Shown here one piece after another: positions 120-47,491 of a stretch of 64,000 bases of DNA (positions are counted from its first letter, which is position 1; each line of letters opens with the position of its first letter). Source of the stretch: Candidatus Dojkabacteria bacterium (GTDB lineage Bacteria; Patescibacteriota; Dojkabacteria; GCA-002793355); the NCBI GenBank assembly GCA_030583685.1, contig CP129470.1, forward strand, positions 745,292 to 809,291, in the 5' to 3' direction. The notes under the pieces are model-generated. The model made no database searches and was not told the origin of the DNA. It saw only the letters and a list, made by a program, of their open reading frames with translations. The translations under genes and the position numbers were made by a program.

Positions 120-800
120 ATGAATCTCGCACTCGCACAAGGACTGACTGCTTTTTGGATAGCATTAGCGTTGTTTGGCTTACTCCCCTTGTATTTTCGT
201 CCGCTTGCACGAATCAAAAGGTTACTTGCGGTGTGTTTGATTGGAATTGGTACTTTTTTTCTTTCAGTTGCTTGGATGAGCGGGGGAATTTTTCTGATAA
301 GCATTTATCTTCTGGCTCTCCTGTTTGTTGTCGTATCGACTGTGATGACCTATTATCTTGGGAAACTTGACTACTATACAGAAGAAGTTTTGAGTGAAGC
401 GTTCATTGTTACGGTGTTGCTTGCAGTAATTGGAATTTCTTCATCGTTGTGGCAATGGGGATTACACTCCGGATTACTAAACATCACGCTGTTGCGTATC
501 ACTCTGGTTGCGTTACCCGTCGTTGCAATGGTCTGGTGTGCCTACTGGTTTCAAAAAAACTTTCTTTATTGGGTAGTTATCACTTTTATTGTTCTGATGG
601 CGGTGAAATGGATGACCCTTCCTTTCTGGGGTATTTGGACGAGTGTTATTGTGCTCTTGTACTCCGTACTCACTGGAAATGTGCTCGCATGGATGGCATC
701 AACGACCTATGCAGAAAAAATACTTGCATGGAATATTTCTCCATCAAAAGTGTGGGGGCTGCTTGTTGCGAGTGCAGGTATTTTAATCCTATTTTTCTAA
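120..800 (+). CDS. hypothetical polytopic membrane protein
   Basis: 226 aa ORF made almost entirely of hydrophobic helices (about 6-7 predicted TM segments); no recognisable catalytic motif. Confidence 0.45.
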   Translation: MNLALAQGLTAFWIALALFGLLPLYFRPLARIKRLLAVCLIGIGTFFLSVAWMSGGIFLISIYLLALLFVVVSTVMTYYLGKLDYYTEEVLSEAFIVTVLLAVIGISSSLWQWGLHSGLLNITLLRITLVALPVVAMVWCAYWFQKNFLYWVVITFIVLMAVKWMTLPFWGIWTSVIVLLYSVLTGNVLAWMASTTYAEKILAWNISPSKVWGLLVASAGILILFF

Positions 801-1255
801 CCGATTTTCACAATTTCAGCAACAGTTTCTCCTGCTGGTGTTTGTACTGTTACGGTTGTTCCTACTTTTTGCCCGACAACTGCTTTTCCAATGGGAGAAT
901 CACTTGAGAGTTTTTTGTTTACCGGATCTGCTTCAAGGGTGGGGACTATGGTGACTGTGGTTTTAATCCCATTCATGATGATAGTCACTTGATCACCGAC
1001 CTGAACGACGTTAGAGTTCTTTGATTCTTTGACGAGTGTCGCTGTTTTTAGTTGTAACTTGAGTTCAGCAATACGCATTCGGGTTATTTCCATTTCTTCC
1101 TTTGCGGTAATCCACGCATTGTTTTCGCTCAAATCGCCATCTGCGCGGGCTGTTGCCATACGCACTTTAATATCAGGGAGTACGCGAGTTTGTAAGTCTT
1201 TGAGTTCTTGTTCGAGAGATTTGAATCCATCGGCGGTAAGCAATAGGTTTCCCAT
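797..1255 (-). CDS. greA: transcription elongation factor GreA
   Basis: 152 aa; N-terminal coiled-coil with acidic DGDLSEN finger motif and C-terminal FKBP-like domain typical of GreA. Confidence 0.85.
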   Translation of the reverse strand: MGNLLLTADGFKSLEQELKDLQTRVLPDIKVRMATARADGDLSENNAWITAKEEMEITRMRIAELKLQLKTATLVKESKNSNVVQVGDQVTIIMNGIKTTVTIVPTLEADPVNKKLSSDSPIGKAVVGQKVGTTVTVQTPAGETVAEIVKIG

Positions 1256-1639
1256 GATGTTTTCAATAAATTTAGGTGTTTGGGGTTATGAAAATTGTTC
1301 CTTGTGCGTTGCACATACGACTTGTGTCGTAGGTAGAGCATGCTCTACAAGGTTCAAATATTGCTGTGCTTTTATAGTACGCCTGATAAGGCTTATGTTA
1401 CTTATTTCAAGCACGCTACGCAATAAAAAACCTGTTGTTGGTACAACTACTCTAGTGTAGCAGAGAAAGGGGAGTTGTCAAGTGTTGAAGCGGATTACGT
1501 ACTAAAAGCTGCGACGAGAAGGAGAGTGGTTAGAAGATGAGTAAAGGTTTCTCGTAAAGGATTTCTGCCCTTACTTCAGAACTTCAATAACGTTGCAGGT
1601 ATTAAGTTGTAATAATATCTTTCGCTTTACCTGCTTTCT

Positions 1640-1648
1640 TGTTATAAT
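1640..1648 (+). promoter_or_regulatory. extended -10 promoter element (TGtTATAAT) driving tRNA-Glu
   Basis: TGnTATAAT ends 9 nt upstream of the mature tRNA 5' end at 1658. Confidence 0.4.
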
Positions 1649-1657
1649 TCCCCATTC

Positions 1658-1729
1658 GCCGCTATCGTCTATCGGTTAGGACACCAGGTTCTCATCCTGG
1701 GAGGCGGGGTTCGATTCCCCGTAGCGGCA
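1658..1729 (+). tRNA. tRNA-Glu (anticodon CUC)
   Basis: 72 nt cloverleaf read by eye: acceptor GCCGCTA/TAGCGGC, anticodon stem CCAGG/CCTGG with loop TTCTCAT, T-loop GTTCGATTC. Confidence 0.8.
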
Positions 1730-1899
1730 ATAAATATTCAAATCATGTCTTACTCCAAATTCAAAAAGAAAGGAACGCATAAGGAGATCTTTGCGGTCAA
1801 TTCGCAAGTTACCAAAATCGGCGATTATCCAGATAGAACGATTAACCTTATCCTTTCGTCAGAACATATGTTTAAAACCTTGAAACCCGTTTTGGAAAA

Positions 1900-2463
1900 A
1901 TGCTTGGTGGAGACTTAGATGATAAAAAGGTGGTGTTGATTCCCAATGGGGGACTCGGGAGCGATCGTGCTCATATGAGTTATGTTTACCTCGAGCAGTT
2001 TACGACGATTAATAATATGTATTTGAAACAATTGGACTTAGATCGGTGGCCCGTTTCTATTTTGGAAAAAACGCTTGAAGACTGTGATGTTATTGTCATG
2101 AGCGGGGGACTCGTTTCTCGCCTATTGAAAGCAATAGATGAATCTGGAGTCAGAGAAAAACTGCTGCAACTAATCCGGTCTGGTAAGCCCGTTATCGGAT
2201 TTTCTGCAGGTGCCATGTGCCTTTCAAAAACGACGTACTTTGCCGAGAAATATATTGGAGAAACTGATCCTTCGGTCGTTAACTATGTCCCCTTAGGTTT
2301 TGTCGATTTTGAAGTATATCCACATGTCGAGGAGAAGACACTCATTCCTGCAATTAAAGCCTTGTTGCCACCAACGGTGAAAGGGTTTGCATTGAGCCCC
2401 GCTGATGCACTTATTGTGACGCAAGGGGAAGTTTTGCAAGCAGGAAGTCCTGTCGCGCTATAA
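1900..2463 (+). CDS. peptidase S51 family (dipeptidase E-like) protein
   Basis: VIVMSGG and GFSAGAM motifs (Ser nucleophile elbow) and overall layout of PepE/cyanophycinase-type class I glutamine amidotransferase-like fold; N-terminus somewhat short. Confidence 0.55.
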   Translation: MLGGDLDDKKVVLIPNGGLGSDRAHMSYVYLEQFTTINNMYLKQLDLDRWPVSILEKTLEDCDVIVMSGGLVSRLLKAIDESGVREKLLQLIRSGKPVIGFSAGAMCLSKTTYFAEKYIGETDPSVVNYVPLGFVDFEVYPHVEEKTLIPAIKALLPPTVKGFALSPADALIVTQGEVLQAGSPVAL

Positions 2464-2469
2464 TACCGT

Positions 2470-3120
2470 ATGCTTTCCATTAATCTGCAGCAAATCGTTG
2501 AGGAAATTAATAGTCGTCGAAATCGGATTCGTTATCCATTTCAGGAATTGGGAATGATGTTAACGACAAAGTTGAATGATCCTCGTCATAAAGCGCTCTA
2601 CATGAAACTTGCAAAGTTTGAAGAGCAAGAACTCTTGATGGACGCAATGCATTATGTCTTAGCGACGCCTAATATCAGTGGAAATGTTGGAGCACTCTTT
2701 ATGTGGAAATTGAAAGAGTTAAAAAATCGGCCACTCCAGCCACTTCCTGTGCGATTTGATACCGATAAGGGATATTTCTTGATTGGGATGTATAAACATG
2801 CGGTAAGAGGGGATATGCCAGTTTTACTTGCAGGAATATATGAGTTTCTTCGTGAACAAAAAACGCTATCGTGTACGATTCTTGAAAAGAAGTCTGAGAC
2901 GGGATACCTTGTTGCAGAAACATTTGTCGAGAAGTACAGTGAATTCAGTAGAGATTTTTTAAGAACCTATAACTGTGCAGCGCGACTTACAATGAATTCC
3001 CTTTGGATGTGGAAAGGTGAGGAGCAACTTACTCAACGCCTGTCGATTGTTGGTACCATAAAACTCGGTGTTCCCGTATTGACAAAGCGATTTGTGAAGG
3101 GTAGAATGCCGTCAACCTAA
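2470..3120 (+). CDS. hypothetical protein
   Basis: 216 aa ORF, coding-like composition, no motif recognised. Confidence 0.4.
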   Translation: MLSINLQQIVEEINSRRNRIRYPFQELGMMLTTKLNDPRHKALYMKLAKFEEQELLMDAMHYVLATPNISGNVGALFMWKLKELKNRPLQPLPVRFDTDKGYFLIGMYKHAVRGDMPVLLAGIYEFLREQKTLSCTILEKKSETGYLVAETFVEKYSEFSRDFLRTYNCAARLTMNSLWMWKGEEQLTQRLSIVGTIKLGVPVLTKRFVKGRMPST

Positions 3121-3164
3121 ATTAGTTGCTATATCGGGAAACCTCTGATATAATTAACCGTCTT

Positions 3165-3377
3165 ATGATATCGCTCGATGGAAAAGTCCTCTCTTCACTC
3201 CCTGATGGGAAGTACAAAGTAGAGGTTGAGCATAAAAATAAGAAACGTCAGTTTATCTGTTACGTTTCTGGTAGAATAAGAATGAACCATATCATTATCA
3301 CAGATAATGACAAGGTGAAAATAGAGGTCTCGGAGTACGATCCAGGCCAAGGTAAAATTGTTTATAGGTATCGATGA
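3165..3377 (+). CDS. infA: translation initiation factor IF-1
   Basis: MISLDGKV...[34 protein letters not shown] matches IF-1 S1-like fold end to end; start taken at internal Met of the longer ORF 3126..3377. Confidence 0.85.
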
Positions 3378-3517
3378 AGGTTAAAGCAAGCGTAACCAAG
3401 CGATGCCCTAAGTGCTACGTAGTTATCCGCACTAAAAAGGGCGCGCATAAACCGCAAAAAAAAGTAGTTTACATTTATTGCAGCGCCAACCCAAGGCACA
3501 AGCAGAAGCAAGGATAA
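3374..3517 (+). CDS. rpmJ: 50S ribosomal protein L36
   Basis: Not in ORF track (<60 aa). Manual translation [47 protein letters not shown] = L36 zinc-ribbon (C-x2-C...C-x4-H); ATG overlaps infA TGA stop. Confidence 0.85.
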
Positions 3518-3535
3518 CTTATTGTTTAGCATATT

Positions 3536-3919
3536 ATGCCACGAATCTTAGGTATACAAATCCCCGACGAAAAGAAAGTGAGAGTATCACTTCGCTATTT
3601 GTTTGGAATTGGTCCAGCGCGAGCAGAAAAGATTTGCACGGTGTGCAAAATTAATCCCGATAAGCGAGCGCATGAACTGACCGATCCCGAAATTAAAGCA
3701 ATCCAGAACTATATTGAAGAAAACTTTGTTGTTGAAGGGTATCTTCGACAAGAAGTTCGCGATCATATTCGACGTTTGAAAGATATTAAAAATTATCGTG
3801 GTGTTCGACATATTATTAATATGCCTGTTCGTGGTCAACGAACCCGACATAATGCACACACCCGCAGAGGTCGAAACATGGCAGTCGGTGGACTTAATCC
3901 GAAAGTAACCAAGACTTAA
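3536..3919 (+). CDS. rpsM: 30S ribosomal protein S13
   Basis: MPRILGIQIPDEKKV...YRGVRH...VRGQRTRHNAHTRRGR typical S13. Confidence 0.9.
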   Translation: MPRILGIQIPDEKKVRVSLRYLFGIGPARAEKICTVCKINPDKRAHELTDPEIKAIQNYIEENFVVEGYLRQEVRDHIRRLKDIKNYRGVRHIINMPVRGQRTRHNAHTRRGRNMAVGGLNPKVTKT

Positions 3920-3934
3920 TTTTCTTAGATAATT

Positions 3935-4339
3935 ATGGCAGAAACAAAGAAAGCAGCAGTCGTAAAGAAGCCACGAAAGGCAAAAGTAAAAGTTCTTTCT
4001 GGCGAAGCACATGTACTTGCAACATTTACTAATACAATGGTAACAATCACTGATGAATCAGGAAATACCTTGGTTCAGTATTCCCCAAGTCGCGTTGGCT
4101 TCAAAAACTCAAAGAAAAAGACACCATATGCAGCAACTAAAGCAGCATTTGCCGCAGCTTCAGAAGCAATAGATAAATACGGGCTTCGAGAAGTTAAGGT
4201 ATATGTAAAAGGTGCTGGTGTTGGACGAAATGCAGCAGTGAAGGGCCTTGCTTCTGCAGGCCTTGCAGTAACATTACTTGCCGATGTGACACGAACTCCA
4301 CACAATGGATGTCGTCCACCTCGCAAACCACGAAAGTAG
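3935..4339 (+). CDS. rpsK: 30S ribosomal protein S11
   Basis: ...VKGAGVGRNAAVKGL...TPHNGCRPPRKPRK S11 signature C-terminus. Confidence 0.9.
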   Translation: MAETKKAAVVKKPRKAKVKVLSGEAHVLATFTNTMVTITDESGNTLVQYSPSRVGFKNSKKKTPYAATKAAFAAASEAIDKYGLREVKVYVKGAGVGRNAAVKGLASAGLAVTLLADVTRTPHNGCRPPRKPRK

Positions 4340-4360
4340 GTTAGTTGATTAGAAAGAAGT

Positions 4361-4969
4361 ATGATTGGACCAAAAGAAAGATTAAGTAGAAGAGAAGGAA
4401 CGAACTTGTACGTGAAAGGTGCAAGAAGTTTTTCTGCAAAAGAAGCATGGGGAAAAAGGCAAACAAAACCAGGACAACACGGTGTCCAGCCTTCAAAACT
4501 ATCTTCGTATGCACGTCAGTTACGAGAAAAGCAAAAAGTTAAGCGAATTTATGGCATGCGCGAGAAACAATTTAGACGATTTTTCTCTCTTGCCGTAAAA
4601 ACTGCGAAAAACTCGAATCAAGACAAGGGCTATATTATGCTCCAACTTCTTGAGCGACGACTTGATAATGTTGTGTATGCGGCACTCCTTGCAAAATCTA
4701 AAAATGCAGCACGGCAGGCAGTTTCGCACGGTCATGTGTATGTCAACGGAAAGAGGGTAACAATTCCTTCCTTTGTTGTTCGAGTTAACGACGTTGTTGA
4801 ACTGAAAGAAGATTTATATAACACCATCAAAGTTGATTATAAAGGGCCAATGGTTCCTGCATGGTTAAACGTTGAAAAGAATAAGATCACTGTTGTGACG
4901 CTTCCAAGCAGACAACAAATTGATCCCTCAATTAGAGAGAATTTAATTGTCGAGTTGTACTCGAGATAA
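4361..4969 (+). CDS. rpsD: 30S ribosomal protein S4
   Basis: N-terminal MIGPKERLSRREG..., S4 RNA-binding domain (LERRLDNVVY), 202 aa. Confidence 0.9.
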   Translation: MIGPKERLSRREGTNLYVKGARSFSAKEAWGKRQTKPGQHGVQPSKLSSYARQLREKQKVKRIYGMREKQFRRFFSLAVKTAKNSNQDKGYIMLQLLERRLDNVVYAALLAKSKNAARQAVSHGHVYVNGKRVTIPSFVVRVNDVVELKEDLYNTIKVDYKGPMVPAWLNVEKNKITVVTLPSRQQIDPSIRENLIVELYSR

Positions 4970-4986
4970 CTTTAAACAGACAGAAA

Positions 4987-5934
4987 ATGGTAGATTTTTC
5001 AGGACTAACCCTAACAAAGACATCAGAAAAGGAAGTCGGCGTTGTTGGAACATTTGAAATTGGACCGTTACCAAAGGGGTACGGAAATACACTCGGAAAC
5101 TCACTACGACGAGTCATGCTTTCTTCTTTAGAGGGATCCGCAATAACGAGTGTCCGAATTAACAACTTGACACATGAATACACGACCATCCCAGGCGTCA
5201 AGCAAAATGTTCTTGATATCGTCCTGCGCTTGAAAAATGTTCGAGTAAAGATGGATGGTGCAGAAACCTCATCAGTACTAACACTTTCCAAGAAGGGTAA
5301 AGGGGTTATCAAAGCAAAAGATCTTTCTGTTGCAAAAGGGGTAGAAGTGATTAATGGTGACTATGTTCTTGCTGAAATTACCGATGAATCTACAACACTC
5401 TCACTCGAAGCAATTGTTGAAAAAGGTGTTGGATACAAGCGAGCAGACGAATCTCTTCGCGATGAAATCGGAAGAATTCCTGTTGATACCTTGTTTAGCC
5501 CTGTTAGATTAGTAGAATTTTCAGTACTTCCAACACGAAAGGGTGCCCAAGCTGATTTGGACAAAGTGATGATTACGGTGACGACAGATGGAACCATTAC
5601 TCCAGAAAAAGCGATTTCTGATGCTGGCGGAATTTTGCGTTCCTTCTTTGGACAGGTCGCTGTTGTCTTTGGAAGCGAGATGGAATCAACAACAGAGTCA
5701 GGATCAGTAACAATGGGTGACTGGAAACTTTCAGAACTTGGAGTTGATGAGAAAATGACGAAAAAATTGGATGCTGTTAATATTACCACCCTTGCAGAAG
5801 CTGCCGCACAGGCAAAAACTTACTTCACAAAAGAAGTAAAATTAACTGCAAAGCAGGTAAAAGAATTAACTGACTTATTGGCGCAGTATAACTTAGGGTT
5901 TGCGAAGAATGCGAAAAAGAGTAAAAAAGCTTAA
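4987..5934 (+). CDS. rpoA: DNA-directed RNA polymerase subunit alpha
   Basis: 315 aa; N-terminal dimerisation domain and C-terminal domain with HhH-like LTAKQVKELTDL; position in alpha operon after rpsD. Confidence 0.9.
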   Translation: MVDFSGLTLTKTSEKEVGVVGTFEIGPLPKGYGNTLGNSLRRVMLSSLEGSAITSVRINNLTHEYTTIPGVKQNVLDIVLRLKNVRVKMDGAETSSVLTLSKKGKGVIKAKDLSVAKGVEVINGDYVLAEITDESTTLSLEAIVEKGVGYKRADESLRDEIGRIPVDTLFSPVRLVEFSVLPTRKGAQADLDKVMITVTTDGTITPEKAISDAGGILRSFFGQVAVVFGSEMESTTESGSVTMGDWKLSELGVDEKMTKKLDAVNITTLAEAAAQAKTYFTKEVKLTAKQVKELTDLLAQYNLGFAKNAKKSKKA

Positions 5935-7123: not shown

Positions 7124-7879
7124 TTCATGCAATTCATGGAGTTGTTGTTTGTATAGTTGCTTTTCTGTTTCCGTACAGATACAAGGAATCAATTCACAAG
7201 AGCATGCTTTTTGAGATAGCGTCAGGCGAATTTTCCCTAATTCTTTGAGAAAGGAGAGTTTCTTGGGATCAACCAATCTTGCACGGTACGAAAGATAAAA
7301 CCCCTGTTTTGTGTAGGTATCCTGAGGGATTTTTTTGAGAATTGGAAGGGGAGTTTTATTTATCGAAATGAGTCCATTCTGAAAAATTACACCAGGAAAA
7401 AACTCTTGCAGGTCAAAGGTCGGCGGAGAAAAGGGAAGTGGTGTGGTATGAAGATGGTGTAAAAGTGATTCAATTGTTTCTGCTTCTTGTATTGCAACAG
7501 TGCTGATTTGCGGAACTTCTTGGTGTCCGTGGGTATATTTTGGCAGGGAGAGCTGGTAATTCGCAAGGAACTTACCGGTGAAATAGAGTGACGTATTTGT
7601 TTGAAGCATTCCCGTAGCTTCAAGAATGCCAATAACAATTGGAAGTTGATAGTATGGCAATGCAAGCGGAAAGTCTGCTTCAATTCCAATATATATTTTT
7701 TGTAAATACTTCTTGTAACCAAGTTTTGCAAGGATATTCCATATTTTTGGGGAAAAATCACTATACTTTTTTCGAAGACTTGAACTAAAACGAAGTCGCC
7801 GTGCTCCTCGAAGTATGGTAATTTCGACGGGTACAAGCTCGGGAATTCGATACAATTCTAAGAGTGTTGTGTAAACCAT
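7112..7879 (-). CDS. hypothetical protein
   Basis: 255 aa, convergent with rpsI, Cys-containing C-terminus (CSCELIPCIC); no family recognised by eye. Confidence 0.4.
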   Translation of the reverse strand: MVYTTLLELYRIPELVPVEITILRGARRLRFSSSLRKKYSDFSPKIWNILAKLGYKKYLQKIYIGIEADFPLALPYYQLPIVIGILEATGMLQTNTSLYFTGKFLANYQLSLPKYTHGHQEVPQISTVAIQEAETIESLLHHLHTTPLPFSPPTFDLQEFFPGVIFQNGLISINKTPLPILKKIPQDTYTKQGFYLSYRARLVDPKKLSFLKELGKIRLTLSQKACSCELIPCICTETEKQLYKQQLHELHELTL

Positions 7880-26157: not shown

Positions 26158-26204
26158 TATTTCTTCTGGAAATCTTGCTATCATGACTCAAAATGCGTTA
26201 TAAT

Positions 26205-26276
26205 TCACCTGAACGGGTTGGTAGCTCAATGGTAGAGCAGCTGACTTTTAATCAGTAGGTTCAGGGTTCGAGTCCC
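26205..26276 (+). tRNA. tRNA-Lys (anticodon UUU)
   Basis: GGGTTGGTAGCTCAATGGTAGAGC...CTTTTAA...GGTTCGAGTCCCTGCCGACCCA cloverleaf, anticodon TTT. Confidence 0.8.
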
Positions 26277-26281
26277 TGCCG
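26259..26281 (+). repeat. direct repeat copy 1 (tRNA-Lys 3' end, CGAGTCCCTGCCGACCCATTTTT)
   Basis: Exact 23-nt match to a second copy at 26447..26469. Confidence 0.75.
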
Positions 26282-26446
26282 ACCCATTTTTCTTTGTTGC
26301 GCAGTAACAAGGTACTACATGGTGAAGTAAATTGAGGGACGAGAAACCCCGAGTCAAATGTAGCAACCTACATTTGACGTAGTGGGAGGGCCCGAGTTCG
26401 AAACACCTTACTACGCGTAGCGCAGACACTGCGTTTCGTGAGTGGG

Positions 26447-26469
26447 CGAGTCCCTGCCGACCCATTTTT
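26447..26469 (+). repeat. direct repeat copy 2 (orphan duplicate of tRNA-Lys 3' end)
   Basis: Exact 23-nt match to 26259..26281; not part of a complete tRNA. Confidence 0.75.
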
Positions 26470-26482
26470 GCTATAATCTTCA

Positions 26483-27623
26483 ATGAAGAAACTCCACAAA
26501 CTATTACTAGGTAATTGGAATAAGCGCAGCTGTATTGGGTGGCGCATACTATTATTTTATATCCTTCCTCCGGCAGGGACAACGATTGAACAGAATGAGG
26601 CACAGGTTGCAACACCTTCCGTAATTGATGATCAAGTTTTAGAGAAAAGAGAACCAGAAGTTGTTGTTGAAGGTTTATCTGTCCCGTGGGAGGATTGCTT
26701 TTTTACCAACTGGCGAAATGTTGGTGACAGAGCGTGACGGTCGGATTGTGAAAATCGCAAACGATAGAAAAGTGTATCAAATTGAAGGTGTTACTCGAAC
26801 AAGTGAAGGTGGCCTTCTTGGTCTGGTACTTCATCCAAACTTTATGCAGAACAGTTATGTCTACATTTATAAAACAACGACTGAAACAAATCGGCTCAAT
26901 AATATTGTTGAGCGATATCGTCTCAATAGTGAGAAGCTTGAAGAGAGGAAAAGAAATATTCACCGGAATTCCTGGTGCTGCAATCCATGACGGGGGACGG
27001 ATGGTATTTGGTCCCGATGGAATGTTGTATATTGCAACTGGTGATGCAAATAGAAGTGAATCGGCACAGGTACGAGAACACCTGCACGGAAAGATATTGC
27101 GAGTAACAGATGAAGGGATGATTCCATCTGATAATCCATTTTCCGGTAGTCCTGTATTTTCACTCGGACATCGAAATCCACAGGGACTTTCATGGGATAC
27201 AGAAGGAAGATTGTGGTCCTCCGAACATGGAAGATCTGGCGTGGCGTCTGGCTATGATGAAATCAATCTGATTGAGGCGGAAAAAATTATGGATGGCCCA
27301 CCATTCAAGGTCCGCAGGCAAAAGTGGGATTGGTTTCTCCCGTTGCACAGTCTGGAGCTTCAACTACGTGGGCACCGGGGGGATTAGCATATTTTGAAGG
27401 GAATCTGTATTTTACTGGATTGCGGGGTGAAGCGTTATATCGCTATACGATCGAAACAAAGGAGCTGACGCAGTTCTATCACAAAAGGTACGGCAGGCTT
27501 CGCGCTGTCACGATGGGGGAGGATGGGTTTTTGTACTTTGGAACATCAAATAAGGATGGTCGAGGAAGTCCAAAATCGGGAGACGATAAAATACTAAGAA
27601 TTGAGCCAAAGAATTTGCGTTAG
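26483..27623 (+). pseudogene. PQQ-dependent soluble sugar (glucose/sorbosone) dehydrogenase, disrupted by three frameshifts
   Basis: Four consecutive ORFs in frames 2,3,1,3 (26483..26737, 26661..26990, 26782..27387, 27324..27623) together spell one sGDH beta-propeller protein (GLSVPWE / FLPTGEMLVTERDGRIV / GLLGLVLHPNF / GRMVFGPDGMLYIATGD / GHRNPQGLSWD / DEINLIEAEKI / GGLAYFEGNLYF). Confidence 0.6.
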
Positions 27624-27670
27624 AATATAGTCCCAATAGAATGGTATAATCGAGAATAACTTTGGAATAG

Positions 27671-27946
27671 TTGGATATGGCATTTGAAGGACCACAAGTT
27701 GAAAGAAGAACTCAGGGAACTATTAAAGCAAAATTCGAGGTTGGTACCATTCTGATTCATAAGAAGTCTAAGCTGAAATACTCCGTGATGGAAGTTGATA
27801 TGCGTAGAAGTGAATATGAGTTATATGGAGTCCTCAGAAATAATGAATTAGAATGGGAGAAGGCACCAACTCCTATGGACGGAACTGATAGCATTAGAGA
27901 ATCTTTCCAAGTAGTTCACGGTGAATACTCGAGAGTTCAGGAATAA
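27671..27946 (+). CDS. hypothetical small protein
   Basis: 91 aa ORF, hydrophilic, no motif recognised. Confidence 0.3.
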   Translation: MDMAFEGPQVERRTQGTIKAKFEVGTILIHKKSKLKYSVMEVDMRRSEYELYGVLRNNELEWEKAPTPMDGTDSIRESFQVVHGEYSRVQE

Positions 27947-27960
27947 TGTTTCGAATGCGG

Positions 27961-28568
27961 CTACTGCGATATTATGGCGGTAACTGTTTCAGCAAGTTCT
28001 TCTATCGAGTTGACGACTGCTCGCGGATTGCCTTGCTCCAACATCGCCTTGTCATGGTATCCCCATGTAACGGCGATTGCCTCAATCCCAACTTTTTCTG
28101 CCTCACGAATATCACCGAGAGTGTCTGTAATAAAATACATCTCTCGATTATGGTGTAGTTTTTGGACTGATTGTAATTTAATCACTTTTGATTTCTCAAC
28201 ATCTACCCCAAGGATGTTACCAAAATAGTGTCGGAGGTTATATTTCTCCAAAAAGCGTGTATCGGTGGGGTAATTGTCGATGAAACAATGGTTGGCTTTT
28301 CGGGGAAAAAATGCAGGACAGATTCAATTTTATCAACTGGAAGTAAGGAGAGAATTTGTTTGCTATAGGTGGAGAAAAATTTTTTAATTTCATTTGATCG
28401 TGTATTCGCGTTTTTTATTTGCTTAGCATCATAAATGTTTCCAGTAAACATATTCTTGTATTCAGGTATCGTTATCTCAGGGTGATTCTGTTTACTAATC
28501 TCGTATGCCATGGATAAGGTGTTAACGACAACACCGTCAAAATCGAAGATGAAGTAAGGAGAAGTCAT
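27961..28568 (-). pseudogene. HAD-superfamily hydrolase split by a frameshift
   Basis: 28203..28568 encodes N-terminal half with FDFDGVVVNT (motif I); 27961..28251 encodes C-terminal half with ITDTLGDIREAEKVGIEAIAV (motifs III/IV); halves overlap out of frame at 28203..28251. Confidence 0.5.
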
Positions 28569-28599
28569 GAGAGTTCTGTAAAAATTATAAGCACCACTA

Positions 28600-28672
28600 T
28601 CGGAGTGGCGGGACTCGAACCCACGACCTCACGCACCCCATGCGTGCATTCTACCAACTGAACTACACTCCG
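28600..28672 (-). tRNA. tRNA-Pro (anticodon GGG)
   Basis: Reverse complement CGGAGTGTAGTTCAGTTGGTAGAATGCACGCATGGGGTGCGTG...GGTTCGAGTCCCGCCACTCCGA; anticodon loop ATGGGGT. Confidence 0.8.
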
Positions 28673-28715
28673 ATGGTGAATTATATCGCACTAAAGACTT
28701 GTTTCCAATATACCC

Positions 28716-29381: not shown

Positions 29382-30968
29382 ATGAGGTTACACAAGAAAA
29401 CTGTCTGGTTTGCTATTGCCATCATTGCGGTACTTTCTCTCATAGGAGGCGGTGCATTTTTCTCCATAAAAATGATGAATGTGTGGGATGATGAGAGTAC
29501 TTGGAGCGTAGATTCTTCAGTTGCATTGCCAGTTGTTGCAGACGGAACGTTTAAGATGACCAGCGAAAAAAACGATTCTGGTGGTACCACAATAACGGTA
29601 CCGTTTTGTGTCCTGTACGATGCAGCAGAAGTTGAGAATGGTGCCACAGAATACTACTGTGCTGCGATACCATATTCAACATTGCAATTAATAGACTATT
29701 TTCCGACAAGTTTTCAGTTTAAAAAGGACATCGTTTTTACTTACAACCCCGAGCGCGATCCGTTACCTGAAGAGTTTATTGGCCGATTAGGCATTACCTC
29801 TGAAACGATCAAGTCGATAGGATCAGAGCCATTGCCGGTGTCAATGGAGGCAGAGGTCTCGCACACGAAGCCAAAGCTTACCCCTGTTTCACTGGTTACT
29901 CATTATTTAATGGTTATGCGAGGTGAAAAGGAAGTGTATGAAGCAACTGCAATGGAATCGTGGAAAATTTCAAAGGTGAAACTTGCAGCAGATTATTCAG
30001 AAGCAGAAAAAAAAGAAGTTGTTGCGGAATGGAGAAAACAAGCATGGCAAGATATCAATAAACTTCTCAAAACTGAAGAGTATTTAAATGCCCCAAACAA
30101 TAAAGAATTGGTAACAAAGCTAGGACCAGCCATGGCATGGCGAAGTGTGTATTGTCCGACGGCAGAGGTCGCCGAACAGTGTGAAGTATCCTATCCGCAA
30201 AATGCGTCTACAAACATTATGTATTATGTGTACGCAGCAAGTCGTATCGATGAGCGTGTGGCAAAACAAATGACTTTGGCGTTACGAGAGAAGGTTATTC
30301 CGTTTGTGTTTGATAATAATCCTGACATGGCTACCTATTACGGTAACTGTGATCCAGAAGGAGAGTGTGCGTACTATCACAATATGCAGGTGTATGATTA
30401 CCCTGTTTGTCCGATTAACCATTTGGCAAGCGCACGGAAAAGTACCTATATAGAGGAGTTGTATGAAGAGCTTCGATTTGTGTTAATTGATGACGAATTC
30501 ATTGAGGAGCCTCTGAATTATGCTGAGATTGAGCGTGAGATTAACGCGTTAAAACAGGATTTCTTGAAGAGCGGGATATATCGAGCCTTTAACAGTTACG
30601 AAGTAGGAGAGGCGATTTCAAAAATTGACAAGCTTTGTCTTCATATGGTTTACAATCAGACACTTCCTGACCAGCGACTTGTTGCTATGATGAAGGAGAT
30701 TTACTATCTCTATGTGTTCGGACAGGTATTTACTGATGAACAAGATTTTAACATTACACCAGATAAGGTCGACGAAAAGTTGTTCCAACTAGTGCTCAAT
30801 GCGGGTGTATTGAATCCGTATGCGTATTCGATTGTTCCACAACCTTACACGAGTTATCACAGAATTTTAACCGGCGTGTATAAAGCTGACGCAGACTACT
30901 TGCTCGATGGCTATTGGGGCTCGATCAATATGACACTTGTACTACTTTATCTAACATCTTCCTATTAA
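29382..30968 (+). CDS. hypothetical membrane-anchored/secreted protein
   Basis: 528 aa with N-terminal signal-anchor (WFAIAIIAVLSLIGGGAFF), otherwise hydrophilic; no motif recognised. Confidence 0.45.
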   Translation: MRLHKKTVWFAIAIIAVLSLIGGGAFFSIKMMNVWDDESTWSVDSSVALPVVADGTFKMTSEKNDSGGTTITVPFCVLYDAAEVENGATEYYCAAIPYSTLQLIDYFPTSFQFKKDIVFTYNPERDPLPEEFIGRLGITSETIKSIGSEPLPVSMEAEVSHTKPKLTPVSLVTHYLMVMRGEKEVYEATAMESWKISKVKLAADYSEAEKKEVVAEWRKQAWQDINKLLKTEEYLNAPNNKELVTKLGPAMAWRSVYCPTAEVAEQCEVSYPQNASTNIMYYVYAASRIDERVAKQMTLALREKVIPFVFDNNPDMATYYGNCDPEGECAYYHNMQVYDYPVCPINHLASARKSTYIEELYEELRFVLIDDEFIEEPLNYAEIEREINALKQDFLKSGIYRAFNSYEVGEAISKIDKLCLHMVYNQTLPDQRLVAMMKEIYYLYVFGQVFTDEQDFNITPDKVDEKLFQLVLNAGVLNPYAYSIVPQPYTSYHRILTGVYKADADYLLDGYWGSINMTLVLLYLTSSY

Positions 30969-30975
30969 GCGTGCT

Positions 30976-33900
30976 ATGACGATACGATTTCACATAAAAC
31001 ACCTCCTGTTAGCAATGGTAGGAATGGCTGCCCTAGTATTTATTGTTGGTACTGCCACAGGGTCTTCCGACTATAAAGTGCAAGCGTGGTATTGTTCGGG
31101 AGGGTGTGATATCAAGCAACCTTGTGAATGTAAAAAACGCGATAAGAATGGTAAGTGTATTTCGTATCCACAATGCGGTGTAACCTGTGGTCCAAAACTG
31201 CAAGGTGGAGAAACGTGGTGTGGCGGTGGGAAAACTGCTGCCTGTACCTGTGTCGGCGGTGACTGTCGAGAATCAGGTGGGCAGTCATGTTCAAATCTTG
31301 GTGCGGTATGTCCTGCCTGTTCTTGTGATCCCGTTAGTTGTCCCCCAGGATCTCCCCCTACAAAGTTTATGACCCGTCCAATCTCCAATGGAAATGGTGT
31401 TCGATGTAATGGATGTGATGGACAAACCTATGCGTGTGATCCAACGCACGCAAATACCCCGCCTGTGTGCTCAATTCTTCCGGGTAATATTGTTATTGAT
31501 AGGCAAGATGATCCAAAGCAATTTGCGCTTACTGTTACGGATAACGATTGGGGTGATGCAGTCGAAATAACGGGAATTAAGATTTTGGATGTTCAGGGGC
31601 AGCTCAATTCCTGTGCTCAGATAACTGGAACTTCCGGCCAAAGTCTTCTTGGTGCCGTAGTCAGACCAGGAAGATCGGACGCCGACAAGGCAAGGATTTC
31701 TGAAACAACGAATTTTCTGGTTGATGCTCGTGAATCTCATGGTGTATATACTCGAAATGCAAATGGTCGTTCAGTCTGTCAAGGAAGTTTGAACATTGAG
31801 ATTAGAGATTTGGATTCTGATGGTGCAGGGCCTGACAAGTCTGATGTCGCTGTCTGTAAAGTTAATGTTACGGTCACGAACCATGCACCGACTGTATCAG
31901 GCATTCGCTTAGAAGATAGAGACACGATGACGGCGATGCGTACTTCAGGAAATTTGATTAATGGGACAGATACCATCGTAAATGTTGGTTCGCGATTAAC
32001 AACTGCAAATAAGTTCAGAGCGTATTACTGTAAAGAAACGCTTGCCAATATTATGCCGATAACGTGTCCTGTTGGTGCAGAAGAGTATCTTTCTGGGGTA
32101 AAAAACCCGTTATTCTTTGAATTCACGGTAACTGATAGAAATGGTGCAAATGATATCATGCAAGCAGGTGTATGGTTACAGCTTCGAGAAACCGGAAAAA
32201 ACAGTAATGTAGCAAATTTTCCGCTTGTTGGTGCACAGCGGTTCAGTTTCCAAGCACTTTATTCTGAGAAAGAAACCTTGAAGATTGGTGCTTTTGATCA
32301 TTTTACCTCGCGAGGGTGTTTGACTGAAGCATGTGGGCCATTAAATATGACAACAAGTCCGAAAACAGTATTTACCGGATTAGGAAGAATAACCAGTTTA
32401 GGAAATCCTGCAACTGTCGGTTCTAAGAACGGCAATTTGTATATGTCTCAGGCGGCGGATAGAAAAAAGTCTGCAACTACCAATGAATGGCATCGTGTGG
32501 GTTATCCTGATTGTCTCGTTCGTGGTGGCTGTAATAATACTAATGTTCCTGCAGTTGCAAAACTTGCTCCAACAAATGACACCTCGCTTCCTGATAATTA
32601 TGCATGGGCAATCGGTGCTGATGAAAATAATATGCTTTGTTATCCAAAAGCAGGGCACGCACCAACAGTGGTTGCTGCTAGCAGTTCGAATATTTGTCCT
32701 GCAAACTGTGCCGCATGTATTAAACGAGAAGGCATGGAGGCAAAAGGTACTGACTCGATTACCTATCGATTTGGCCTATATTTTAATGATGGCGAGTCAT
32801 TAACTGGACAAGGGATGCCCTCAGGCGATTACTCTCTCTTAATAAGTGCTCTGGATAAAGTTGGTGCCCCGTTGTATCAAGTCGAAGGGAAAGGTCCTGA
32901 AGGATGGACTTTGTTTGATAAGTTTGGTGAGGTATGTCAGGGTGCATCATGTGTATCAGGTAATGGCTTTAGAATCAGGTACGATACTATTGCACCTCAA
33001 GTAACTGTAACAAATTGGTCTTCTAATGCAGATAATGAGACTGTTCGAGCAGTTGTGACAATTGTTGATAATACTGGTGGTTCCGGTGTTCGTGGGGTAA
33101 CAAATCGCTTCCTAGCGTTCCAAAATATGGTTGATGGAGAGCCTTCTGGCACCTGGGAATGGACGAAGAAAGAAGCAAGTGACGAAGATTTTGACGGAAA
33201 GAATGATCATCAACGATTTACTGGCTCATCAATGACGCTCATTGGTCGAGGCATGTCTTCTGGTGATGAGATTGTAGCTGGGCTTTGTGCCTACGATGCA
33301 GCAGGAAACATGGGATGTGGAAAGAACGCTGAGAATTATGTATTTCTTGCCAACTGGATGAAGACATCATTTGGAAATATCTATAGTGGTACTGGTTCAA
33401 GTGCACCATTTAGTATGTCCTTGCCGTCAAATCAAGTGTTTAACGGTAATGAAACAAGGGACGAAACCAGAAAAGAGAGTAAGCAGTATTCACAAGTTAC
33501 AATATATTCACCGTATTCTGAACAGGAGTTTACTGTTGGGACAGGGCTATTACTAAGTAGTTCTGGTGCAAGCAATTCTGGATTGCTTGGTGGAAAGTCT
33601 TCAGGCTCGACTCAAACGCCACTTGGTTTTCTCAATAATTATCGACAAGGGTCAGGGACAACAGTATATAATTTCTTCTCGTTAACCTCCTTCAGCCAAG
33701 GAAATGAATTTGAGCGACTGCAATCGATTGCAAAAGTTAATTGTCAATTGTTAAATGCAGGCAATCCTGGAACATGTACTGAATCGTCGAGTATTTCTGA
33801 GTTGGGAAGTAATAATTACACGGTATTAACGGTCAACAGTGCGTCAATTTCAAGTGATTTGGTATGTAAGAAAGTCAATGTCATCTTTATTACCGGCGAT

Positions 33901-34347
33901 GTAAGAATAACGGGTAATCTTACAAAGGAAAATGAGCAATCGGGGTGTCTCTTTGTCGTTGGGAACGGAGGTTCTCTCTCAGTTCAAGATAGGCCATCTG
34001 GTGATCGTCAGAGAACTGAAGTAAGTGGAGGTAAAGGTGCCCCAATTGTCGACCAATTCCATGCAGGTATTGTAGGAACAAATGGGTCTACTGTTTCATT
34101 TAAAAAGCCAGAGACACCTGCTAGAACGGGTAATGATCGATTAGAAATTCACGGCTGGGTGTACACAGTCGGAAGACCCGCCAATTTTTTGAGAGATTTG
34201 GCGGCTGTCGATAACCGTCGTTTCCCTGCAGAGTGGATTATTTACGACGCAACATTACTTGATGTTTTGAGACCGTTGGTTGGATTTGAAAAAACTGCTG
34301 ATCTTCTCTGTGGTACATCTGGCCACGTTCTCTGCCGATCGCAATAA
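30976..34347 (+). CDS. large secreted surface protein with Cys-rich N-terminal domain
   Basis: 1123 aa; signal peptide; about 24 Cys in residues 40-170 (CSGGCDIKQPCECK...CNGCDGQTYACDP), then long Gly/Ser/Thr/Asn-rich beta-type region. Confidence 0.5.
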   Translation: MTIRFHIKHLLLAMVGMAALVFIVGTATGSSDYKVQAWYCSGGCDIKQPCECKKRDKNGKCISYPQCGVTCGPKLQGGETWCGGGKTAACTCVGGDCRESGGQSCSNLGAVCPACSCDPVSCPPGSPPTKFMTRPISNGNGVRCNGCDGQTYACDPTHANTPPVCSILPGNIVIDRQDDPKQFALTVTDNDWGDAVEITGIKILDVQGQLNSCAQITGTSGQSLLGAVVRPGRSDADKARISETTNFLVDARESHGVYTRNANGRSVCQGSLNIEIRDLDSDGAGPDKSDVAVCKVNVTVTNHAPTVSGIRLEDRDTMTAMRTSGNLINGTDTIVNVGSRLTTANKFRAYYCKETLANIMPITCPVGAEEYLSGVKNPLFFEFTVTDRNGANDIMQAGVWLQLRETGKNSNVANFPLVGAQRFSFQALYSEKETLKIGAFDHFTSRGCLTEACGPLNMTTSPKTVFTGLGRITSLGNPATVGSKNGNLYMSQAADRKKSATTNEWHRVGYPDCLVRGGCNNTNVPAVAKLAPTNDTSLPDNYAWAIGADENNMLCYPKAGHAPTVVAASSSNICPANCAACIKREGMEAKGTDSITYRFGLYFNDGESLTGQGMPSGDYSLLISALDKVGAPLYQVEGKGPEGWTLFDKFGEVCQGASCVSGNGFRIRYDTIAPQVTVTNWSSNADNETVRAVVTIVDNTGGSGVRGVTNRFLAFQNMVDGEPSGTWEWTKKEASDEDFDGKNDHQRFTGSSMTLIGRGMSSGDEIVAGLCAYDAAGNMGCGKNAENYVFLANWMKTSFGNIYSGTGSSAPFSMSLPSNQVFNGNETRDETRKESKQYSQVTIYSPYSEQEFTVGTGLLLSSSGASNSGLLGGKSSGSTQTPLGFLNNYRQGSGTTVYNFFSLTSFSQGNEFERLQSIAKVNCQLLNAGNPGTCTESSSISELGSNNYTVLTVNSASISSDLVCKKVNVIFITGDVRITGNLTKENEQSGCLFVVGNGGSLSVQDRPSGDRQRTEVSGGKGAPIVDQFHAGIVGTNGSTVSFKKPETPARTGNDRLEIHGWVYTVGRPANFLRDLAAVDNRRFPAEWIIYDATLLDVLRPLVGFEKTADLLCGTSGHVLCRSQ

Positions 34348-46438: not shown

Positions 46439-47491
46439 ATGAATAAAGAAAAAATTTCAGTTGTCTTCCCTACAACGGAAGAATTACTCAAGTCAGGTGC
46501 GCAATTCGGGCACTCAACGCAACGCTGGCATCCAGCATTCGCGCCGTATATCTATAGAGAAGCTAAAGGAATTCACATCATTGATGTTCGTCAGACAGTA
46601 CCAGCACTCGAAAATGCAGTCGACTTTCTTGGTGCTGCCGTCCAAAAAGAAGCACGAGTGTTGATTGTTGGAACGAAAAAACAGGCCGCAGGAATCGTGA
46701 AAGAAATGGGCGAGAAATTCGGAATCTTCTATGTGAATGACAAATGGCCCTCAGGTCTCTTGACGAACTTCAAGACGGTTTCACAATCTATTCAAAAGTT
46801 ACAACGATTACAGGAGTTACATATTAAAAAAAGATATGTTCTTCCAAAAAAAGAATTACTGTCAATGCAACGAGAAATCGAGAAGCTAAAAGCAAGGTTT
46901 AATGGCGTTATGTTTATGGATAGACTACCGCAAGTGATAATAGTCATTGATACGAAGTATGAAAAGATTGCGGTAAAGGAAGCTCGCGCAATTGGTATCC
47001 CAGTAGTCGGCATAATTGACTCAAATTGTGATCCAAGGCTTATTGACTACCCTGTTCCGTCAAATGATGATGCAATTAAAGCCATTCGATTGATCCTTGG
47101 CGTGTTTAGTGAAGTTTTAAGTAAATATAGCTCAAAACGCTTGGTTCCTATGCGAGAACAATTCGCAAAGCGCTTAGCCGAACTCAATCGATCTATTGAA
47201 GAAGAGCATCGAATTAAGGTAGCAAGCGAGTTGCCTGTTGAACAAAAGACTGAAACAACCGTTACTCCTCGAGAAGAATCAAAATCGGGCCGTACAGTTC
47301 GAGTGACCTCCTTTAGAGCAATTTCTGAATTGAAACTTCCAGAAACAGTTCTCGAAAAATTAACGCAAGCAGGGATTACTTCTATTGAACAAATCAAAGA
47401 GAAATCCTTCGAAGAGTTGAAGAGTTTGAAAGGAATTGGTGCAAAGACGGCAGAAAAGATAATCTCAGTGGTACAGAAATATGGCAAATAA
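46439..47491 (+). CDS. rpsB: 30S ribosomal protein S2 with C-terminal helix-hairpin-helix extension
   Basis: N-terminal 250 aa = S2 (FGHSTQRWHPAFAPYIY...); extra about 90 aa ending LKSLKGIGAKTAEKIISVV (HhH motif). Confidence 0.85.
   Translation: MNKEKISVVFPTTEELLKSGAQFGHSTQRWHPAFAPYIYREAKGIHIIDVRQTVPALENAVDFLGAAVQKEARVLIVGTKKQAAGIVKEMGEKFGIFYVNDKWPSGLLTNFKTVSQSIQKLQRLQELHIKKRYVLPKKELLSMQREIEKLKARFNGVMFMDRLPQVIIVIDTKYEKIAVKEARAIGIPVVGIIDSNCDPRLIDYPVPSNDDAIKAIRLILGVFSEVLSKYSSKRLVPMREQFAKRLAELNRSIEEEHRIKVASELPVEQKTETTVTPREESKSGRTVRVTSFRAISELKLPETVLEKLTQAGITSIEQIKEKSFEELKSLKGIGAKTAEKIISVVQKYGK

Follow-up and report, generated by a model that had tools for sequence, protein, structure and literature searches.

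Duplication of a tRNA 3′ end is the standard footprint used to delimit genomic islands, and the mobile elements of bacteria that belong to the Candidate Phyla Radiation (CPR) are poorly known. Among described systems, mycobacteriophage Ms6 targets a tRNA-Ala gene through a core of 26 bases, the strands being exchanged within the 7-base T-loop, and in T-loop-class phages of this kind small changes in the core redirect the element to a different tRNA whose T-loop is similar (PMC1762012). Gene-less, att-flanked cis-mobilizable elements (CIMEs) and tandem accretions are documented at tRNA-Lys, CIMEs being decayed integrative and conjugative or integrative and mobilizable elements (ICEs and IMEs) that keep attL and attR and have lost the genes for integration and transfer (PMC5704250). 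Here we analyse a tRNA 3′-end duplication at the tRNA-Lys(UUU) gene of a Candidatus Dojkabacteria bacterium, in a single 64-kb stretch of its genome (the window), and find that this footprint encloses a self-contained unit of ~178 bp that recurs at a second tRNA in a sister lineage. We put at about even odds (a probability of roughly 0.5) the reading that this unit is an att-flanked integrative element of the T-loop class, miniature in size and devoid of genes, that resembles a CIME and is now fixed and drifting approximately neutrally.

The tRNA-Lys gene is intact; its T-arm reads CAGGG TTCGAGT CCCTG, and CCA is not encoded. The duplicated stretch consists of the last 18 nt of the tRNA and 5 nt beyond it, so that copy 1 comprises the last 5 nt of the T-loop, the 3′ strand of the T-stem, the 3′ strand of the acceptor stem, the discriminator and TTTTT. 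An exact 23-mer search of the window returned two matches to this sequence, where 0 are expected, and in 100 shuffled sequences nothing matched even with up to 3 mismatches allowed. The borders of the repeat are sharp, with no homology beyond the 23 nt. An earlier note on this DNA had described an intact tRNA-Lys(UUU) followed by an exact 23-nt duplicate of its 3′ end lacking a tRNA body, and ARAGORN, Rfam and the exact search bear this out; its distances need shortening, since the two copies lie 178 nt apart from start to start rather than 188 nt and enclose a unique segment of 155 nt (26292–26446) rather than about 165 nt. The parts of the locus are as follows.

26215–26286, plus strand: intact tRNA-Lys(UUU) (ARAGORN; Rfam RF00005, 76.6 bits)
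26269–26291, plus strand: repeat copy 1, attL-like, CGAGTCCCTGCCGACCCATTTTT (exact 23-mer search)
26292–26333, plus strand: left module (fold prediction)
26292–26312, plus strand: hairpin 1 in the left module, CTTTGTTGC GCA GTAACAAGG (fold prediction)
26334–26446, plus strand: conserved core (alignment to the sister-lineage copy; covariance model)
26334–26350, plus strand: T-arm-like hairpin in the core, GAGGGACGAGAAACCCC
26353–26378, plus strand: perfect 11-bp hairpin in the core, arms 26353–26363 and 26368–26378
26381–26397, plus strand: invariant block in the core, AGTGGGAGGGCCCGAGT
26388–26404, plus strand: T-arm-like sequence in the core, GGGCCCGAGTTCGAAAC
26411–26420, plus strand: 10-bp palindrome in the core, CTACGCGTAG
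26439–26446, plus strand: right end of the core, TGAGTGGG, abutting repeat copy 2
26447–26469, plus strand: repeat copy 2, attR-like, an orphan tRNA-Lys 3′ end without a tRNA body (exact 23-mer search)

For comparison within the species we used the independent short-read (Logan) assemblies recovered for the locus, which represent three haplotypes: that of the window, to which the 11-kb contig L001 also belongs (1 mismatch), and two others, L002 and L086. Beyond the species we used a 2,630-nt contig of a sister lineage (L082; Logan SRR33696296) and a contig of a related genus (L090).

The 178-bp unit is non-coding and consists of the 23-nt tRNA end, the 42-nt left module with its hairpin and the 113-nt core; no open reading frame (ORF) of note lies between the repeats. 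The core ends at the junction …GAGTGGG|CGAGTCCC… and contains invariant runs of 16–17 nt. The three motifs that the earlier note had picked out of the insert are all present in the window, with two amendments: the 11-bp hairpin is perfect but its loop is CAAC (4 nt) rather than caacc, and the 10-bp palindrome is not conserved, haplotype L086 reading CTAGGC-TAG; the T-arm-like motif was found as described, at 26388–26404. The core carries further T-arm-like motifs of the form GGG-(N)-CGAG-(N)-CCC, and CGAG occurs five times in the 202 nt from 26269 to 26470 against 0.76 expected (shuffle p = 0.0009).

Several lines of evidence bear on the origin of this unit. First, the order SDR, tRNA-Lys, spacer, orphan end, GSDH (a sugar dehydrogenase gene described below) is the same in every recovered independent assembly, across all three haplotypes, and is therefore not an assembly artefact; the interval between SDR and GSDH measures 325 or 324 nt in all of them. 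In L002 and L086, copy 1 ends in TTTTA, which reduces the repeat to 22 nt. Neither the tRNA-Lys gene nor the orphan copy 2 carries any substitution between the three haplotypes. In the 155-nt spacer, 4–8 positions differ from one haplotype to another (2.6–5%), similar to the 3.2% at GSDH third codon positions, so it drifts at about the neutral rate.

Second, the arrangement is specific to the lineage. Dojkabacteria relatives with an SDR 77–79% identical to that of the window differ in gene order, and synteny is lost; L090 was instead reached through the downstream 528-aa protein (49% identity), around which the order PNPOx … Trx, 528-aa protein, 1127-aa protein, RecA is kept. Its orthologous tRNA-Lys(UUU) is identical at 67 of 72 nt and has the same promoter motif, TGCGTTATAAT. 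No duplicate of the tRNA 3′ end and no homologue of the spacer were found at this gene by sequence inspection, BLAST, nhmmer or the covariance model, and the unit is therefore a lineage-specific insertion and not a conserved tandem tRNA or a tRNA-linked RNA. The comparison is with a different genus, where the locus has undergone rearrangement and TTCGAAT is the T-loop sequence. The earlier note had proposed looking in relatives for an intact element with its integrase at the tRNA-Lys site: the orthologous gene of L090 is unoccupied. L090 and the window carry different cargo in the interval from tRNA-Lys to tRNA-Pro, which is therefore a variable hot spot. L090 also has a copper-resistance cluster at 757–5672 (cupredoxin, HMA, DUF305, CopA-type ATPase, DsbD_2 and CsoR), flanked by PNPOx and an inverted tRNA-Lys.

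These results leave very little probability for a decayed tandem duplicate of tRNA-Lys, that is, a pseudo-tRNA of which only the 3′ end has stayed intact, and we reject it. GTAGCGCAG in the spacer bears a weak likeness to the D-arm GTAGAGCAG, and GGGAGGG could pair at 5 of 7 positions with the acceptor 3′ strand. However, no tRNA body precedes copy 2 according to ARAGORN (relaxed thresholds, introns allowed, tmRNA and mitochondrial modes included) or the Rfam tRNA model (E ≤ 10). Aligned to the body of tRNA-Lys and to the flank upstream of it, the spacer scores no better than shuffled sequences (p = 0.23–0.85), and the same holds for the bodies of tRNA-Lys and tRNA-Pro (p = 0.23–0.94). A perfect 23-nt end beside an unrecognizable body is implausible, the arrangement is not conserved in L090, and in the sister lineage the same core abuts the end of tRNA-Pro.

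Third, this second copy of the core, on contig L082, lies at the end of a different tRNA. In the window that tRNA carries no insertion:

28599–28673, minus strand: tRNA-Pro(GGG), unoccupied in the window (ARAGORN, sequence)

Among the five tRNAs of the window, only tRNA-Lys and tRNA-Pro have the T-arm GGGTTCGAGTCCC. L082 is 86% identical in nucleotide sequence to 26457–28301 of the window, and its GSDH is 94% identical in amino acid sequence. Positions 1906–2026 of L082, on the minus strand, match window positions 26334–26454, that is, the 113 nt of core and the first 8 nt of the repeat (102 of 121 nt, 84%; E = 3e-32), and the covariance model scores this copy at 145 bits. Homology stops at the same junction as in the window, …(A/G)TGAGTGGG|CGAGTCCC…. 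Past the junction L082 reads GCCACTCCGA, which together with the preceding CGAGTCCC makes up the exact last 18 nt of tRNA-Pro(GGG), CGAGTCCCGCCACTCCGA. The copy adjoins HAD, as tRNA-Pro does in the window, and lies on the opposite strand. It forms a tandem array of 1.45 units, in which, after one complete unit of 179 nt, the first 79 nt of another follow at ~80% identity (alignment score of 79 for the partial against the full unit, compared with 19 ± 3.4 for shuffled sequences; period 177–179 nt). The tRNA-proximal module, of ~45–60 nt, carries a different hairpin from that of the Lys type, and the similarity between the left modules of the two types is not significant (p = 0.22). The repeat is 31–79 nt long in L082, compared with 23 nt in the window. 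A third tandem unit upstream of the array (p = 0.92) and a decayed tRNA-Pro body in that position (p = 0.81) were both tried and rejected. Along the contig as a whole (1–2630), the stretch from the end of tRNA-Lys to the inverted copy of the element holds GSDH, one small ORF and a HAD truncated to 116 aa; beyond the copy lies a 140-aa ORF that has neither a homologue in the window nor a Pfam match.

The recurrence bears on the alternative that the locus is a one-off scar, in which a full-size island or prophage at tRNA-Lys was almost wholly deleted, leaving attL, attR and a 155-nt arm. The architecture of the repeats with no gene between them would be expected of such a scar, as would its fixation in all strains with neutral-like drift, and the different cargo between tRNA-Lys and tRNA-Pro in the related genus marks the interval as an island hot spot. 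Independent deletions at two tRNAs would not, however, leave one and the same contiguous 121-nt core with an identical junction and a period of 178–179 nt each time; the small unit must itself have undergone duplication or integration, as the 1.45-unit array in L082 also shows. We therefore favour a miniature element over the remnant of a deleted island, which we regard as unlikely. The earlier note had read the duplication as att-like, and on this point the sharp borders, the empty site in L090 and a core that starts in the T-loop lend support; of the origins that it offered, the deletion scar is disfavoured.

The features of the locus support a role of the repeats like that of the attL and attR ends of an insertion into the part of tRNA-Lys that runs from the T-loop to the 3′ end. 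The repeats, the absence of the unit from tRNA-Lys in the related genus, the second copy with an identical junction and period, and the lack of genes are observed; from them we infer the action of a recombinase, the direction of events and past mobility. The family would have as its core the last 121 nt, ending …GAGTGGG|CGAGTCCC, with a target-specific tRNA-proximal module made up of the tRNA 3′ end and a hairpin; it would occupy tRNA-Lys in this species and, as 1.45 units, the end of tRNA-Pro in the sister lineage, both of which carry the T-arm GGGTTCGAGTCCC. The mechanism would be site-specific recombination of the tyrosine-integrase type and of the T-loop class. The incoming element would bring its own copy of the tRNA 3′ end, leaving the tRNA intact at attL and the original 3′ end orphaned at attR beside the old flank, and tandem accretion is a known outcome at att sites. 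The element codes for nothing; it would be a miniaturized derivative that is non-autonomous, with the integrase supplied in trans. On this model an empty site would read …CCGACCCATTTTT|GCTATAATCTTC directly after a single tRNA end, and a circle or tandem junction would read …GTGAGTGGG|CGAGTCCCTGCCGACCCATTTTT|CTTTGTTGCG. The wider proposal, of a gene-less ~178-bp family in Dojkabacteria that homes to T-arms GGGTTCGAGTCCC by means of a 121-nt recombination core and an exchangeable, tRNA-restoring hairpin module, and that accretes in tandem through an integrase acting in trans, is one that we hold only tentatively and judge to be less likely true than false.

Several observations weigh against a miniature integrative element. 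No integrase or recombinase is encoded between the repeats, and none was found in a Pfam scan of 15 ORFs (13 of the window and 2 of L082, among them the 140-aa ORF beside the copy) or in the precomputed Pfam annotation of the neighbouring genes. The unit is known from just two loci, and neither an empty site nor a presence/absence polymorphism occurs among the recovered assemblies of the species, all of which are occupied. In each copy the repeats match that copy's own tRNA, so a single integrase event cannot derive one copy from the other, and a swap of modules is needed. The element side of the attR junction, GTGGG-CGAGT, lacks the TT of the T-loop, so that the overlap is not a simple copy of the T-loop, and 178 bp makes a very small circle for an integrase to excise and integrate. 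The upstream repeat of L082 has degenerated (24 of 31 nt match the downstream repeat) and has no recognizable tRNA attached; this copy is known from a single 2.6-kb contig, the first 129 nt of which are 99% identical to the strain of the window and the rest 86%.

Some of these same features would be expected if template switching at microhomologies, or illegitimate recombination, between its T-arm-like end GGGCGAGTCCC and genuine T-arms GGGTTCGAGTCCC had placed the core beside tRNA 3′ ends. Such a process would directly explain why the repeats are target-specific, why they differ in length (23 nt compared with 31–79 nt) and why the T-loop TT is absent at the junction, and the right junction, the same in both copies, falls within an 8-nt microhomology, CGAGTCCC. 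A free first switch point, however, does not predict a constant period (178 and 179 nt) in copies whose left modules are not significantly similar; moreover, tRNA-Lys is perfectly restored, and we know of no donor locus. This origin is, in our view, improbable.

The earlier note had also raised the possibility that the insert is a structured RNA. In such a case it might be a functional RNA co-transcribed with tRNA-Lys, or a leader or regulator of GSDH, with a tRNA-like 3′ end that serves in processing or competes with the acceptor strand. The predicted fold is more stable than those of shuffled sequences (z = −3.4; −3.95 for the L082 copy), the core contains the invariant 16–17-nt runs, and the Lys and Pro copies differ by two compensatory pairs. 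Changes between strains in hairpins 1 and 2 either keep the pairing or fall in loops; in hairpin 1, two changes are in the stem with pairing kept and one is in the loop. In a modelled fold of the whole transcript, the 5′ acceptor strand of the tRNA may pair with copy 2. Against this, the two strands are equally structured (z = −3.40 for plus and −3.34 for minus), the substitution rate is close to synonymous, and L082 breaks seven predicted pairs while compensating two and turning one into a wobble. Haplotype L086 has lost the palindrome, the related genus lacks the unit, and no promoter or terminator for a separate gene was found. Rfam (15), searched over the whole window at gathering thresholds and over the locus at E ≤ 10, scored only tRNA-Lys here, with nothing in 26292–26469 even at the latter threshold; no family, including tRNA, tmRNA, 6S and SRP, matched the spacer or the L082 copy, and ARAGORN was negative in tmRNA mode. 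A functional RNA accordingly seems quite unlikely. Equal structure on both strands would fit DNA inverted repeats that act as protein-binding sites.

How does a miniature integrative element at this locus compare with described systems? As with T-loop cores of the Ms6 type, the block of identity starts within the 7-nt T-loop and runs to the tRNA 3′ end (26 bases in Ms6 compared with 22–23 here), the tRNA is restored at one end while an orphan 3′ end stands at the other, and retargeting parallels the Lys- and Pro-type copies. Unlike those phages, the locus has no integrase and no cargo, the whole 178-bp unit is about as large as attP alone, the junction lacks TT, and neither excision nor empty-site polymorphism is seen. 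In keeping with an attL/attR pair, one tRNA 3′ repeat lies in an intact tRNA and the other is orphaned, and the tRNA-Lys of L090 is unoccupied, with the differences of genus, locus and T-loop given above. Like a CIME, the unit is a segment at a tRNA 3′ end that is bounded by att-like repeats and has no genes between them, and it occurs in tandem in the L082 copy; unlike for CIMEs, neither a parent element nor a partner integrase is known for it here, and its host belongs to the CPR (Patescibacteria). To our knowledge, the CIMEs described so far are much larger than 178 bp and are recognizably derived from ICEs or IMEs.

Miniature inverted-repeat transposable elements (MITEs) and the Correia, RUP and RPE elements share with the unit a length of ~100–200 bp, a lack of coding sequence, an abundance of hairpins and occurrence at more than one site. 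In contrast to them, it has no terminal inverted repeats, its ends CTTTGTTGCG… and …GTGAGTGGG not being inverted copies of each other, and its duplication is tRNA-specific, at 22–31 nt or more (23 nt here, 31–79 nt in L082), rather than a short target-site duplication of fixed length. Within the sequence examined, there is one copy in the window and ~28 kb more of the species' genome (~10% of 888,748 bp), and a second locus in the sister lineage. On the wider, tentative proposal, the unit would amount to a MITE counterpart in the world of integrases, roughly as large as attP on its own; if such mini-units move, no smaller integrase-dependent elements would have been described, and they would be a marker of integrase activity in CPR bacteria.

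Searches for further copies with nhmmer and the covariance model found no other core in the window, in the additional ~28 kb or in the other contigs collected for comparison. The earlier note had suggested looking for other copies of the hairpin; its pattern gave 0 matches in metagenome and viral contigs. The att core and three blocks of the core had no matches in IMG/VR, or chance ones without extended similarity, and BLAST against phages and plasmids gave nothing relevant, so that no parent element emerged from the viral, phage and plasmid collections. Among GTDB genomes, the 18-mer att core matched 60 times, always in tRNAs of unrelated phyla and never in Patescibacteria, and a 28-mer across the D-arm and anticodon arm of tRNA-Lys had 3 unrelated matches in metagenomes. 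On contig JAXLYM010000007.1 of a Polyangiaceae metagenome-assembled genome, the 18-mer CGAGTCCCTGCCGACCCA occurs twice on the same strand, at 116–133 and 7344–7361, 7.2 kb apart, which may represent a genuine island flanked by tRNA ends or two tRNA genes. The metagenome contig Ga0209515_10002284 (~5535–5660) carries an unrelated tRNA-Lys(UUU) with its own T-arm and acceptor 3′ end inverted ~18 nt beyond the gene.

The genes neighbouring the unit are SDR, GSDH, HAD, PNPOx and DCD. The protein product of SDR, which lies upstream, is identical to NCBI WKZ23863.1 from a Candidatus Dojkabacteria bacterium. The following further features flank the unit.

26175–26204, plus strand: promoter-like site of tRNA-Lys, TTGCTA-18-TATAAT (promoter scan)
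26469–26477 (context to 26485), plus strand: extended −10 element of GSDH, TGCTATAAT (sequence inspection; conserved in all strains)
26483–27623, plus strand: GSDH, PQQ-dependent sugar dehydrogenase, PF07995, outside the repeats, with five frameshifts in the window only (ORFs)

The −10 context TGCGTTATAATTCACC is common to the promoters of tRNA-Lys and tRNA-Pro, and these promoter regions form an inverted repeat, I10 (26194–26209 and 28675–28690), in the context TGCG(T/A)TATAATTCACC. Repeat copy 2 keeps the original upstream context of the GSDH promoter. The ATG of GSDH (26483) begins 6 nt past the −10 element, and its position suggests that the mRNA is probably leaderless. GSDH was also tried, and rejected, as a route to syntenic relatives: its nearest non-self homologue is only 55% identical.

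Relative to the other strains, the window has six 1-nt indels, five in GSDH (26512, 26555, 26692, 26947 and 27279) and one in HAD (28253); ~20 kb around these two genes is free of such indels. L001, of the same haplotype, lacks the two that fall within its coverage, and in every other assembly both genes are intact, with products of 379 aa (GSDH) and 202 aa (HAD). The indels are either strain-specific pseudogene mutations or local consensus errors. The earlier note had taken the frameshifted genes as a sign of a decaying island; that argument is weak because the genes lie outside the repeats, and since these neighbours are intact in all other assemblies, annotators should not read the tRNA-Lys locus as a decaying island.

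The region downstream varies among strains. Window positions 27500–28000 are hyper-divergent, with 32–46 mismatches per 500 nt compared with fewer than 10 in most neighbouring bins, and within this stretch the small ORF that follows GSDH has an indel of 47 nt (27646–27692) at its start. Between tRNA-Pro and a CsoR-like repressor, other strains have a gene for a 164-aa GNAT acetyltransferase (L002, 9281–9775), on a segment of ~500 nt that is absent from the window (28692–28712).

Elsewhere in the window, ribosomal protein S2 (46439–47491, plus strand, 350 aa) has a C-terminal helix-hairpin-helix domain resembling the C-terminal domain of RNA polymerase alpha (Pfam PF03118, E = 2e-6), and RpoA (4987–5934, plus strand, 315 aa) has matches to the N-terminal domain only. 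Two proteins without an assigned function, of 528 and 1,123 aa (29382–34347), have a paralogous pair of 519 and 1,126 aa in another part of the species' genome (contig L091, 10001–14943), beside a sortase; identity between the 528-aa protein and its 519-aa paralogue is 42%.

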